DNA of 64,000 nt from Deltaproteobacteria bacterium (GCA_040218735.1 JAVJQW010000062.1:288001-352000); one strand, 5' to 3'. Shown: positions 1-3,506, counted from the stretch's first letter. Translations and numbers: made by a program. Notes: generated by a model not told the origin, from the letters alone.

Positions 1-252
1 GGTGGAGTGTTTGTCGACCTTCTTGCCGGGGATGTCGGCGAGGTCCATCACCCGGCCGGACTCGAGCATCGCGCGGACGAGCGCCGCGAGCTCGGCGCCG
101 CTCATCCCGCGGAAGAAGACGGCCATCGTGAACGCGGCCATCTGGTCGTCGCCCACGTCGCCCTTGGTGTAGGCGTCGATCAGCCACTCGATGGCGGCCT
201 CTTCCAGGCTGCCGCCGTCGCGTTTGGTGCGGATCAGATCCACGGCGCGCAT
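1..252 (-). CDS. pdp: Thymidine/pyrimidine-nucleoside phosphorylase, N-terminal part (runs off window edge)
   Basis: Hand translation from ATG at 252 (not in the ORF track): MRAVDLIRTKRDGGSLEEAAIEWLIDAYTKGDVGDDQMAAFTMAVFFRGM...KKVDKHST. This is the typical DeoA/Pdp N-terminus with the DKHST motif. Confidence 0.93.
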   Translation of the reverse strand, partial: MRAVDLIRTKRDGGSLEEAAIEWLIDAYTKGDVGDDQMAAFTMAVFFRGMSGAELAALVRAMLESGRVMDLADIPGKKVDKHST

Positions 253-304
253 CGTCCGCGTAATGGATCAGGTTCGCAGGGCGAGCGCAACCAGAACGCC
301 GCTA

Positions 305-1270
305 TCAGAAGCCCAGGTCGTCGTCTCCGCGCGCGACGCCGCGCTCCTGCCGGTACAGGATCCCCGCCAGATCGATCCCCACGATCGGCAAGCCCTCCGC
401 GAGGTCGATCGCGAGGAACAACGCGGGGCTCACGGGGCCGAAGTGGCCGCGAGCGCCGATGGTGAGCTGGACGGGCTGCGTGAGGTCGACCCCGGCGGCC
501 TCCCCCGTCACCGCGATCGTGTTCCCGAGCTGGAGGTAGGGCTCGATCGCCGACACCGGCTGCACCGCGAGATGCACGAGCCAGTGGAACATCATCAAGA
601 ACTCGGCGTCGCGCTGCGCCGTGAAGGCCGGCGCGAGGGAGAGCTCGACGAGGCCGGTGAACACGTTGACCGAGACCCCGGCCTGGAAGCGGGGGCGGAA
701 CGTCATCAGGCGCGTCACGTACAGCTCGGGATCGTAGCTGCGGATGCTGGCGATCGCGTGCATCGGATCCGTCGGCGCCTCGAGCGCGAAGCCGATCGCG
801 CGCGGCACTTCCGGGGCGGTCGGCGCGTAGACGTCGAACCCGAAGCCGAACGTGAGGTGCGGCCGGTTGCGGCTTCGTGGGTCGCCGGGGAGCGCCACGT
901 CGAAGCCGCCCGCCAACCCGAGCTTGAAGTTGCCGATGAAGAACTCGTTGACCCCGGGCTTCGGCGCGTAGGCCCCGAAGGGGAGCGCGGCGACGATCGC
1001 GAGGCCGTCGGTGAGCCGCAGCGCGGTGGACAGCTCGAACGCCCACCGCACCGTCTCGCGCTGGACGTCGACCGGATCCGAGAACGCCCCGCGCGTCGTG
1101 AGGTGGAAGCGTGAGTAGCCGTGCGGGTCGAGGGTGTCGACGCTGACGAACGGGGGACGCAGGCTCACCAGATCGTTCGCGCTACCGAACTCGAAATCCT
1201 GATCGGTTTGCGCGTAGGCCGAAGCCGACGCGCCGAGGAGGACTACCGCGAGGAGCGACGCGCGATGCAT
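305..1270 (-). CDS. Exported hypothetical protein, possible outer-membrane beta-barrel
   Basis: Signal peptide MHRASLLAVVLLGASASAYA, alternating hydrophobic beta-strand-like segments and a C-terminal Phe. Start trimmed from the 1381 ORF start, which overlaps deoC. Confidence 0.7.
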   Translation of the reverse strand: MHRASLLAVVLLGASASAYAQTDQDFEFGSANDLVSLRPPFVSVDTLDPHGYSRFHLTTRGAFSDPVDVQRETVRWAFELSTALRLTDGLAIVAALPFGAYAPKPGVNEFFIGNFKLGLAGGFDVALPGDPRSRNRPHLTFGFGFDVYAPTAPEVPRAIGFALEAPTDPMHAIASIRSYDPELYVTRLMTFRPRFQAGVSVNVFTGLVELSLAPAFTAQRDAEFLMMFHWLVHLAVQPVSAIEPYLQLGNTIAVTGEAAGVDLTQPVQLTIGARGHFGPVSPALFLAIDLAEGLPIVGIDLAGILYRQERGVARGDDDLGF

Positions 1271-1310
1271 CACGGACGGAGCATAACGCACCGCCTCGCG
1301 GAGCCAAGAA

Positions 1311-2186
1311 TCAGTACCCCTTGCCCCCGGTCTTGCACTGCACGATCGCGACAGAGCTGGAAGCCCCGATGCGGTTCGCACCCGCGGCGATCACCTTGTT
1401 GGCGTCTTCGATCGTCCGCACGCCGCCGCTCGCCTTGACCCCCAGCGCGTCGCCGACGACGTCGCGCATCAAGGCCACGTCCTCGGCCGTCGCGCCGCCG
1501 CCCGAGAACCCGGTCGACGTCTTCACGAACGCCGCGCCCGCCGCCGCGCTCAGCGTGCAGGCCATGATCTTCTCGGGGTCGGTCAGTTTGGACGTCTCGA
1601 TGATGACCTTCACCGGCGTACGTCCGGCGGCGTCGACTACGGCGCGGATGTCGTCGAGCACGTACTTGTGATCGCGCGACTTGAGGGCGCCGATGTTGAT
1701 CACCATGTCGATCTCACCCGCGCCGGCGCGGATCGCCTCGCGGGTCTCGAAGGCCTTCGCGCCCGGGGTCCCCGCGCCGAGCGGGAACCCGACGACCGCG
1801 ATCGCCTTTACGTTGGAGCCGGCGAGCAGCCCCGCGCAGTAGCGGACGTTGGCGCTGTTCACACAGACCGTCGCGAAGCCGAAGCGTTTGGCTTCGTCGC
1901 ACAGCACCTTCAGCTCGTCCTTCGTCGCCTCGGGCTTGAGCAGCGTGTGGTCGATCAGCGGCGCGACGTGGCCACACGGCGTCGCCTCGATCGGCCCGCT
2001 CGTCCCCACGCGCTTCGCGCCGAGGTTCACCGCGCCGATGACGGTGCGGGTGTCGCACTTGTCCGCGACCGCACACGACGCACACGGCGCCACGGGGCCG
2101 GCCATCGACGGGGACTGCTGCGCGATCTCCGCGCGCACGCGCTGGGTGATGATTTCGACGAGCCTGTCGACGTCGGTGTCCTTCAA
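1311..2186 (-). CDS. deoC: Deoxyribose-phosphate aldolase with N-terminal encapsulation-peptide-like extension
   Basis: [32 protein letters not shown] and VKASGGVR motifs, plus about 75 extra N-terminal residues. Confidence 0.96.
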
Positions 2187-2944
2187 GACTTCTCTCCTGC
2201 TAACGCCCGGCGGACCTCTTGCTCCACCACCGCACGCACGGCGTCCACGCCGGACGCGGCCGTGCTCACGGAAGCGGCCGTGCTCGCGGGCGCCGGCGAG
2301 CCGCGATGCAGGCCCGCCTTCTTCCTCAGTTCGGTCAGGTACGCGCGCTCGTCGTCCGCGAGCGGCGGCGGTGCTCCCACGCCTCCGCGCGCGATCGACA
2401 CGATGCGCGCGAAGTGCTCGACGAGCTCCACCCGAAGGTACGCGGTCTCCAGATCCGGGCCCACCGCGATGACGCCGTTGCCCGCCAAGAGCAACACGTC
2501 GGCGTGCGCGAACGCCGCACCGACCGCGCCGGCGGCCGCCGGATCCTTGGGGAGGAACCGCGGCACGAGCGGGATGTGCTCGCCGATCGAGACGAACACC
2601 TCGGGCATCGTCACCGGCCCCAGCGGGACCTCCGCGAGCGCAAACGCCGAAGCGTGCGGCGGGTGCGCGTGGATGATGGCCTTCGCGTCCTCGCGCGCCG
2701 CGTAGGCGCCGACGTGCAGCGCGACTTCACTCGGCGGACGACCGCGCGAGGTCGGCTTTCCGGCGGCGTTGCACGCGACGATCGTGTCCGGCGTGCAGAC
2801 CCGCTTGCTGACGGCGGTCGGCGTGATCAGGAAGCCGTCGCGCGACCGCAGTGACACGTTGCCGTCGTGGTTCGCCACGAACCCCTGCGCGTGCAGGAGC
2901 AGGCTGTACTCGGACACCTCGCGGCGCTGCTTGAGATCGTTCAC
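2183..2944 (-). CDS. Class II aldolase/adducin family (FucA-like) with C-terminal encapsulation-peptide-like helix
   Basis: GNVS, ITPT, PSEVALH and IIHAHPP motifs. An Ala/Ser linker precedes [16 protein letters not shown]. Confidence 0.92.
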
Positions 2945-3231
2945 CGGGTCACCCCCGGGACATCGACGGTGTCGACGATGCCGACGATCGTCTCCAGGAT
3001 CGGGAGCGTCGCCGTCAGGTCCCCCACGAGGATCTGCCGCACGCCGTTGCCCTCCTTGAGGACGAGCACCGTGTCGCCGATACCGGCCTGCGCGTTGTCG
3101 ACCGCGATGATCTCGTCACCGCGATCCTTGCCGCGCTCGTCGATCGGCTGCACGAGCATCAGCTTGTAACCGACGTAACCCGGGTGTTTGGCCGAGGCGA
3201 CGACCGTGCCGACGACGCGACCGAGGATCAT
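2941..3231 (-). CDS. BMC vertex (pentamer) protein, EutN/CcmL family
   Basis: MILGRVVGTVVAS..K, KLMLVQP, AVDNAQAGIGD and IVGIVD motifs; 96 aa. Confidence 0.96.
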   Translation of the reverse strand: MILGRVVGTVVASAKHPGYVGYKLMLVQPIDERGKDRGDEIIAVDNAQAGIGDTVLVLKEGNGVRQILVGDLTATLPILETIVGIVDTVDVPGVTR

Positions 3232-3506
3232 CGCCCCGCCTCGCGATCGACCTGGTCGACGATGCCCACGATCGCGGCGTCGACGGGCACGAACCGCACC
3301 GGCGTCGCGTGGGAGGCCTCGCGCGCGCTCACGCAGTAGACGTGGTCCCCGACCCCGGCCTGCGCGGCGTCACACGCGACGATCGGCGGCGCGTCCTTCG
3401 CGTTGCCCTGGCTGTCGAGCGCCTCGACGAGGAGGAGCTTCACCCCCTCCAGGCCTTCGTACTTCACGGACGCGACGACCGTGCCGATGACCCGCGCCAG
3501 GAACAC
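3228..3506 (-). CDS. BMC vertex (pentamer) protein, EutN/CcmL family
   Basis: MFLARVIGTVVASVK, KLLLV, ACDAAQAGVGD and PVDAAIVGIVD motifs; 92 aa. Confidence 0.96.
   Translation of the reverse strand: MFLARVIGTVVASVKYEGLEGVKLLLVEALDSQGNAKDAPPIVACDAAQAGVGDHVYCVSAREASHATPVRFVPVDAAIVGIVDQVDREAGR

Follow-up and report, generated by a model that had tools for sequence, protein, structure and literature searches.

What does the Haliangium ochraceum (HO) type of bacterial microcompartment (BMC) do for the cell that builds it? The HO shell serves as the principal model in microcompartment structure and engineering, and its native function was called enigmatic by Sutter et al. (2021, PMC8217296), who described this BMC in 40 further genomes. 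The question is raised again by one end of a 64,000-nucleotide stretch of a Deltaproteobacteria bacterium genome (GCA_040218735.1 JAVJQW010000062.1:288001-352000; "the window" denotes this whole stretch). There, two genes for BMC-P, the vertex protein of the shell, are followed by the genes of a class II aldolase, of deoxyribose-phosphate aldolase (DERA, encoded by deoC), of an exported protein and of a thymidine phosphorylase. The original prediction, made from the sequence alone, read this locus as the satellite of an HO-like organelle that catabolizes deoxyribose. Comparison across related genomes supports that reading well: the locus is probably a satellite of a type I HO BMC, translationally coupled to the deoC-pdp-punA operon that is usual in this lineage, and the organelle would serve deoxyribose catabolism. 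The functional idea was already in print: Sutter et al. (2021) remarked that an involvement in nucleic-acid catabolism, such as has been put forward for the SPU (sugar-phosphate-utilizing) class of BMCs, would suit myxobacteria.

The four genes from the first BMC-P to deoC form a translationally chained unit (Table 1). Their proposed linkage by 4-bp overlaps is borne out at every junction of the minus strand: ATGA joins the stop of the first BMC-P gene (a) to the start of the second (b), GTGA joins the stop of BMC-P b to the start of the aldolase, and TTGA joins the aldolase to DeoC, which starts with GTG or ATG in relatives. To the left of position 1, the sequence continues with the remainder of pdp and then, on the same strand, with a purine nucleoside phosphorylase of PunA type, which scores 326 bits against TIGR01700, above the cut-off of 293 of that equivalog model. 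The window lies on contig C18 of the source genome (11.6 Mb, 70 contigs, 96.5% complete). A profile search of this contig found no match to PF00936 (BMC-H and BMC-T shell proteins) and none to PF00171 (aldehyde dehydrogenases, AldDhs), and the lack of such genes that had been noted for the window thus holds for the contig as a whole.

The shell itself is encoded elsewhere. All PF00936 matches of the source genome fall on contig C61 (locus L009), in the order BMC-T, BMC-H, BMC-P, acylating AldDh, a 231-aa lipoprotein and BMC-T, which is the layout of a type I HO BMC. The AldDh is of the EutE/PduP type (PRK15398, 639 bits). The genome contains exactly three PF03319 genes, one in this main locus and two in the window, so that the BMC-P triplet is split between the two sites; the only two BMC-T genes found are both in the main locus, given an assembly that is 96.5% complete. 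The same main-locus gene order was found in all seven relatives for which the locus was fetched. Judged from sequence, the genome therefore encodes one complete HO-style shell set and an EutE/PduP-type AldDh away from the window. The predicted organelle had depended on BMC-H and BMC-T genes elsewhere in the genome, and an acylating AldDh had been named as a further gene to search for; both were located in the HO arrangement.

Three features of the main locus and its surroundings are recorded here in their own right. Extra weak PF00936 matches occur on other contigs of the relatives G013, G002 and G019 and may represent a third, detached BMC-T. The 231-aa protein (L009:12707-13402), encoded between the AldDh and the second BMC-T, has a lipoprotein-type signal with a lipobox cysteine and no Pfam match; its gene overlaps both neighbors, and a homolog occupies the same place in 7/7 relatives, where the N-terminal cysteine precedes a motif resembling xxRYVGS. 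In six of eight genomes, a divergently oriented exbB-exbD-tonB cluster adjoins the main BMC locus (L009:7526-9366; L081, L082, L084, L085, L086), and the fetched stretches of G004 and G007 contained no match to it.

To learn how the satellite and the shell are distributed, we examined 20 genomes of the order, including the source genome. PF00936 shell genes are present in nine of them. An ortholog of the satellite aldolase (at least 53% identity, genome search) was found in exactly the same nine, as was the chain of BMC-P, BMC-P, aldolase and DeoC, whose order is kept in 8/8 shell-bearing relatives (BMC-P a orthologs in all eight, 60-94% identity). Pdp adjoins the chain in seven of these eight relatives, and PunA in all five whose contigs reach that far. 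The survey of synteny thus upholds the expectation that the linkage of BMC-P, deoC and pdp would be conserved among shell-bearing relatives. An aldolase search of assembled contigs returned four loci, one of which is a contig of the same genus. deoC as defined by TIGR00126 occurs exactly once in each of the 20 genomes. In the 11 shell-less genomes, it sits in the same syntenic place, after the gene of a GYF/Zn-ribbon protein and before the barrel gene (the exported protein of the window), pdp, punA and a HAD hydrolase gene, and the BMC-P genes and the aldolase are absent.

The presence of the shell is mirrored in the DeoC protein. An N-terminal extension is carried by DeoC in 9/9 shell-bearing genomes versus 0/10 shell-less genomes with a readable N-terminus. 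The nine shell-associated proteins have 68-93 extra N-terminal residues, and the ten others start no more than about 23 residues before an 11-residue core motif and show neither a helix nor a four-cysteine cluster. At one fixed chromosomal site, the DERA extension comes and goes together with the shell genes, the aldolase and the two additional vertex genes, and this joint presence and absence makes a clean comparative argument for DERA as the signature enzyme of the HO BMC. The 15 BMC-associated DERAs (nine from the order and six from other families) group without exception in one clade of a DERA tree, with short branches and a support of 95/96, together with the DERA of the shell-less genome G008, whose genus also contains a shell-bearing genome. 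The other shell-less DERAs fall outside this clade on long branches. The tree fits a loss of the BMC module, read with the reservation that it is unrooted and that several of its forks are unsettled. In shell-less G018, DeoC and Pdp appear to be fused in a single open frame of 657 aa (L079, G018:C76, minus strand, from 10248 downward), which ties the two enzymes functionally.

Table 1. Features of the satellite locus and its surroundings. Positions refer to the window unless a locus name precedes them.
Feature	Position	Strand	Evidence or remark
BMC-P a (EutN/CcmL vertex protein), 92 aa	3228-3506	minus	PF03319, E 3.7e-25
BMC-P b, 96 aa	2941-3231	minus	PF03319, E 1.2e-22
Class II aldolase (FucA-like fold), 253 aa	2183-2944	minus	PF00596, E 1.9e-38
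Aldolase Asn156	2476-2478		at the position of FucA's last zinc-binding His; structure alignment
Aldolase C-terminal encapsulation-peptide-like helix, about residues 232-249	2198-2251	minus	behind a Pro/Ala/Ser-rich linker
DeoC/DERA, 291 aa, TTG start	1311-2186	minus	TIGR00126, 274 bits vs cut-off 117
DeoC N-terminal extension, residues 1-72	1971-2186	minus	amphipathic helix 3-23, low-complexity linker, invariant Cys/His
Outer-membrane 12-stranded beta-barrel gene (FapF/COG4313-channel fold), 321 aa, signal peptide, best start 1270	305-1270	minus	no Pfam match
pdp 5' part, first 84 codons (thymidine/pyrimidine-nucleoside phosphorylase)	1-252	minus	PF02885, E 2.1e-21; NF004490/NF004747, ~1e-29
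Complete pdp, 436 aa	L008:14942-16252		PF00591 + PF02885 + PF07831 on the full protein
TPR-rich protein, 910 aa	3542-6274	minus	upstream synteny anchor, Pfam matches
Zn-ribbon/GYF-domain protein, 586 aa	6302-8062	minus	upstream synteny anchor, Pfam matches

The DeoC of the window is the only TIGR00126 DERA of the source genome; the other PF01791 match is a different aldolase of the DeoC/LacD family. Its residues 73-288 align to solved DERAs (E 5e-75), with the lysine motifs VKTSTGF and VKASGG kept (GVKASGG aligned), and the equivalog score together with these conserved lysine-bearing motifs of a class I aldolase barrel places the enzyme in EC 4.1.2.4. We take the two lysines to be K167 and K201 of the E. 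coli enzyme, a mapping that draws in part on the legend of Fig. 2 in Dwyer, Sutter and Kerfeld (2024, PMC11585597). N-terminal to this aldolase core, the comparison across genomes identifies the first 72 residues of this sole DERA as a BMC-specific extension. Residues 3-23 are helical in an AlphaFold2 model, and the hydrophobic moment of this helix (0.64) exceeds the 95th percentile of the protein (0.54), in agreement with the amphipathic terminal helix that had been claimed for DeoC; most of residues 20-77 have a pLDDT below 50.

The extension also holds a cluster of cysteines. Its invariant residues are C35, C38, C44, C71 and H73, residues 35-71 corresponding to window positions 1974-2084. 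At least four cysteines are present in 35/35 full-length extensions, including metagenomic sequences and those of more distant relatives. Their spacing is C-x2-C-x5-C-x26-C in this lineage and differs elsewhere (e.g., C-x6-8-C-x2-C-x2-C). Four ligands that are kept while their positions shift suggest a putative metal site, in a region for which AlphaFold2 gave no confident fold. When a profile of the extension was searched against 1.84 billion representative proteins, nine matches were obtained at E <= 0.001, eight of them DeoC N-termini and one a repeat protein that we took as spurious; within these representatives, the search found no other enzyme family with this module.

The aldolase of the satellite resembles E. 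coli L-fuculose-phosphate aldolase (FucA), with whose structures its core aligns fully (E ~1e-17 to 1e-19), and differs from it at the metal site. The glutamate and the HxH motif are kept, and the LLQHHG of FucA is aligned with LLAGNG, in which the last histidine has become an asparagine. That histidine is presumably the third zinc ligand, H155, of a site made up, in E. coli numbering, of the zinc-binding histidines H92, H94 and H155 and the catalytic glutamate E73. The protein thus belongs to the Pfam family and lacks the three-histidine zinc site of the FucA type. All nine orthologs have the asparagine, as do 114 of the 120 top-ranking homologs; the six with a histidine are among the most distant. 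Because homologs of about 220 aa that have no C-terminal helix carry it too, the asparagine marks the aldolase subfamily and not the helix-bearing form.

A terminal helix was also claimed for the aldolase, and it is recovered at the C-terminus with a hydrophobic moment of 0.51, above the 95th percentile of 0.44. Its motif, xVRxVVxEEVRRAL, is kept in the orthologs of the order and in many metagenomic homologs, and the ~220-aa homologs of other families lack it. The N-terminus of the main-locus AldDh (KIAEIVGRVMQRVL) has a moment of 0.76 and a pattern similar to those of the DeoC N-terminus and the aldolase C-terminus. By sequence, DeoC, the aldolase and AldDh each have the marks of an encapsulation peptide (EP), namely a short terminal amphipathic helix and a poorly conserved linker that are absent from non-BMC homologs. 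No terminal helix extension was seen in Pdp, PunA, the HAD hydrolase or the other downstream proteins. A predicted complex of BMC-P b with the aldolase scored 0.00 in a run that had no controls.

Beyond the order, we drew on a phylum sample of 401 genomes, in which aldolase homologs were counted at E <= 1e-40; the tallies of aldolase and of PF00936 both include the unpublished genome G195. An aldolase homolog occurs in 119 genomes and PF00936 in 159, and the counts run parallel from family to family (aldolase versus PF00936: 63 versus 67 of 172 genomes in f9, 10 versus 11 of 11 in f17 and 4 versus 4 of 4 in f19). We fetched ten aldolase loci of other families (~8 kb each) and the DERAs of six genomes, four of these six DERA loci with only ~1.5 kb of flank. 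Two EutN genes stand directly upstream of the aldolase in 10/10 loci, with a GYF gene upstream of those in 7/10, and the aldolase is the ~220-aa form without the C-terminal helix. deoC directly follows the aldolase in G046, where the two genes overlap by 8 bp, and is one gene away in G204. In all six shell-bearing genomes, the DERA has the N-terminal helix and the Cys cluster, even where deoC is unlinked.

How does this arrangement compare with the microcompartments already described? The Haliangium satellite cited in the original prediction is confirmed by Sutter et al. (2021, PMC8217296), who state that the type I HO satellite consists of two BMC-P genes and an aldolase gene away from the main locus, that the BMC-P triplet is present in all loci, and that the HO AldDh is closest to the AldDhs of SPU5 and SPU7. 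They also report a pfam01791 enzyme that some HO genomes encode at a separate site, in some cases with an EP-like N-terminal extension. The present genome agrees with the type I HO BMC in its BMC-P triplet, split 1 + 2, its single BMC-H and tandem-domain BMC-T genes, the acylating AldDh of its main locus, its satellite of two BMC-P and a class II aldolase on a separate contig, its pfam01791 enzyme, encoded outside the main locus and bearing an EP-like extension at the N-terminus, and the nucleic-acid catabolism proposed for it. It is the triplet, the main locus of BMC-H, BMC-T and acylating AldDh, and the satellite that assign it to the HO class. It departs from the main-text description, which puts the pfam01791 enzyme at a "different genomic location", in that the deoC gene overlaps that of the satellite aldolase, in translational coupling, and has pdp and punA behind it. 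A second difference lies in the BMC-T genes, of which only two were found in this genome. A search of the full main texts of papers found none with an experimental test of HO BMC function.

There are likenesses to the SPU BMCs, too, especially to SPU5. According to Dwyer et al. (2024, PMC11585597), all SPU DERAs have an N-terminal extension of ~70 residues that non-BMC DERAs do not have; the extension renders the protein insoluble or aggregating, and the truncated enzyme is active on deoxyribose-5-phosphate. In their description, SPU5 lacks RpiB, and its class II aldolase bears a C-terminal EP. The present system shares with SPU the signature enzyme, a DERA with a ~70-residue N-terminal extension (amphipathic helix followed by a poorly modelled part), an AldDh with an N-terminal EP and the BMC-P triplet, and with SPU5 the class II aldolase with a C-terminal EP and the lack of RpiB (no PF02502 match in the source genome, 96.5% complete). 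Unlike in SPU, the genes of the DERA (on C18, with two BMC-P only) and of the aldolase lie apart from the shell locus, as AldDh, BMC-H and BMC-T are on C61, and the locus showed no gene for PduS, TPI or PTAC. Of the features by which SPU loci are recognized (Axen 2014; Dwyer 2024), the extended DERA is thus present, and an RpiB-family protein (pfam02502, absent only in SPU5) and a DERA gene in the main locus with AldDh are not. The main text of Dwyer et al. (2024) places DERA, among BMCs, in SPU loci only; the words nucleoside, phosphopentomutase, zinc and iron-sulfur do not occur in that main text, and the Cys cluster is not mentioned there.

The third point of comparison is the cytoplasmic pathway. 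In the shell-less relatives, DeoC and the pyrimidine- and purine-nucleoside phosphorylases lie together much as they do in a deo operon, and the same holds for the locus under study. The classical operon of E. coli reads deoC-deoA-deoB-deoD. Unlike that operon, the genomes of the order have no DeoB-type phosphopentomutase (0/20), and an outer-membrane barrel and a HAD hydrolase belong to the conserved neighborhood; in shell-bearing genomes, moreover, the DERA is extended and placed behind the BMC genes.

These comparisons are consistent with the following route. Nucleosides, perhaps admitted through the outer membrane by the adjacent beta-barrel, would be cleaved by Pdp and PunA in the cytoplasm to a base and (deoxy)ribose-1-phosphate. 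A mutase that is not of the DeoB type would convert the latter to deoxyribose-5-phosphate, which would enter the shell. There, the encapsulated AldDh would trap acetaldehyde as acetyl-CoA, and a cytoplasmic fusion of acetate kinase and PduL (AckA-PduL) could then yield acetate and ATP.

Several results weigh against a deoxyribose-catabolizing organelle of this kind. Of the predicted path from Pdp through phosphopentomutase to DeoC, the two ends are present, and for the middle no DeoB-type mutase was found in any of the 20 genomes of the order, so that the step from the phosphorylases to DERA has no assigned enzyme. Of the other companions that had been looked for, RpiB was not found in the source genome, and PduL (PF06130) was found once, fused behind acetate kinase (PF00871) as the C-terminal half of a 616-aa protein (L049:8257-10107, contig C58); the site is unrelated, distant from all BMC genes and adjacent to a gene for a Na+/H+ antiporter. 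A search for a phosphotransacylase or alcohol dehydrogenase with an EP found none, which leaves cofactor recycling without explanation. The proposed tie to nucleoside catabolism stands for the chain itself, kept in 8/8 relatives with Pdp beside it in 7/8, and fails as a special mark of the BMC: since Pdp is present at 9/11 and PunA at 10/11 of the shell-less deoC loci, the linkage to pdp and punA is ordinary deo operon context. Because the compared genomes are kin, the 9/9 versus 0/10 split of the DeoC extension does not amount to 19 independent events. Finally, outside the order, deoC did not lie within the fetched ~8 kb in 8/10 loci of BMC-P, BMC-P and aldolase, and the sequence fetched around the DERAs of these families contained no match to Pdp or PunA.

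We therefore weighed other explanations of the same genes. The organelle might be built around the class II aldolase, its substrate being a ketose-1-phosphate (e.g., fuculose-, rhamnulose-, ribulose- or 5-deoxyribulose-1-phosphate), with DeoC a cytoplasmic enzyme that is a mere syntenic neighbor. The phylum-wide unit is indeed BMC-P, BMC-P and aldolase by a GYF gene (the EutN pair and aldolase in 10/10 and the GYF gene in 7/10 loci of other families), deoC is adjacent in only one of these ten loci and nearby in one more, and in shell-less relatives the neighbor of deoC is this same GYF gene. Against this explanation, the DERA extension tracks the shell exactly in the order (9/9 versus 0/10) and is present in 6/6 shell-bearing genomes of other families, including those with an unlinked deoC. 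The genes for the aldolase and DeoC share 4 bp in the window and 8 bp in G046, and a comparable extension is described as a hallmark of SPU-BMC DERAs (PMC11585597). We consider this explanation unlikely.

Alternatively, the DeoC extension could be no encapsulation signal and instead a metal- or redox-sensing regulatory domain or an oligomerization domain that happens to co-occur with the BMC, and the BMC would then enclose only the aldolase and AldDh. The conservation of at least four cysteines in 35/35 full extensions despite their differing spacing, a feature not seen in plain EPs, and the lack of a confident AlphaFold2 fold for residues 24-77 would suit such a domain; the amphipathic helix formed by the first ~20 residues of DeoC, however, shares its pattern with the N-terminus of AldDh and the C-terminus of the aldolase, and genomes that have lost the shell genes have lost the extension as well. 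We hold this explanation to be quite improbable. The two BMC-P proteins and the aldolase might form an assembly of their own, independent of the shell, whose link to the BMC-H/BMC-T locus is only historical. This we regard as very improbable: that the triad is always apart from the main locus in the loci examined, and that the aldolase of other families has no recognizable C-terminal EP, speak for it, and against it stand the restriction of the triad within the order to PF00936 genomes (9/9 versus 0/11), the parallel per-family counts of aldolase homologs and PF00936 across the phylum sample, and the need of the genome for these two genes to reach the triplet of BMC-P that typifies HO and SPU loci.

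The deoxyribose reading could also be widened to a "nucleoside-sugar" HO compartment with two aldolases. DERA would act on deoxyribose-5-phosphate, and the Asn-variant aldolase on a second ketose-1-phosphate derived from nucleosides, such as ribulose-1-phosphate or 5-deoxyribulose-1-phosphate, to give glycolaldehyde or acetaldehyde for the same AldDh. The Cys cluster would bind zinc or an iron-sulfur center, and through it the redox or metal state could control whether the cargo condenses or is active. We hold this elaboration to be rather unlikely; if it were true, metal or redox gating would be a feature not described for encapsulation peptides.

Set against the literature, the HO satellite, the EP-bearing DeoC and the nucleic-acid role are already in print and are not new, and the locus leaves the known picture unchanged. 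What it adds is incremental: the direct operon link, the correlation of extension and shell in presence and absence, the single clade of BMC-associated DERAs and the four-cysteine cluster, as well as the His-to-Asn aldolase ligand, the lack of DeoB and RpiB, and the lipoprotein inside the shell operon. The question of HO function thereby becomes directly testable with existing tools.

Between punA and the HAD-IA hydrolase gene, left of the window and on the same strand, lie genes for a GH57, a GalT-like and a GH3-family protein, none with terminal helices or an evident pathway link. The GH3-family gene (PF03321) occurs between punA and HAD in all six shell-bearing loci that extend far enough (L008:9155-13824; L039, L040, L041, L042, L044), in some of them beside GH57 and GalT-like genes; it has no tblastn match in the 11 shell-less loci, a distribution that could reflect lineage history and not function. 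A dihydroxyacetone phosphate (DHAP) shunt, which would pair a methylthioadenosine (MTA)/5'-deoxyadenosine phosphorylase with the class II aldolase, is unsupported as regards the phosphorylase, which scores 69 bits with the MTAP model versus 326 with TIGR01700. One gene of family PF01008 (MtnA/IF-2B) is found on contig C8 of the source genome.

The exported protein between deoC and pdp is, in its AlphaFold2 model (pLDDT 77.6), a beta-barrel, and it ends in a C-terminal Phe. A Foldseek search against the PDB matched it to the 12-stranded FapF (5o65, E 8.5e-9, TMq 0.56-0.59) and also to a COG4313 outer-membrane channel (4rl8), and its Atlas neighbors include PF13557(-like) clusters. The barrel gene lies beside deoC in 12/20 genomes of the order (11/19 when the source genome is left aside), mostly on the opposite strand. 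The original prediction placed both this gene and the thymidine phosphorylase gene downstream of deoC on the same strand, which is correct for the window and not general for the barrel: only in this genus (G000, G011) does it share the strand of deoC, and in other relatives it is opposite or absent. That the barrel takes part in nucleoside uptake would be a guess.

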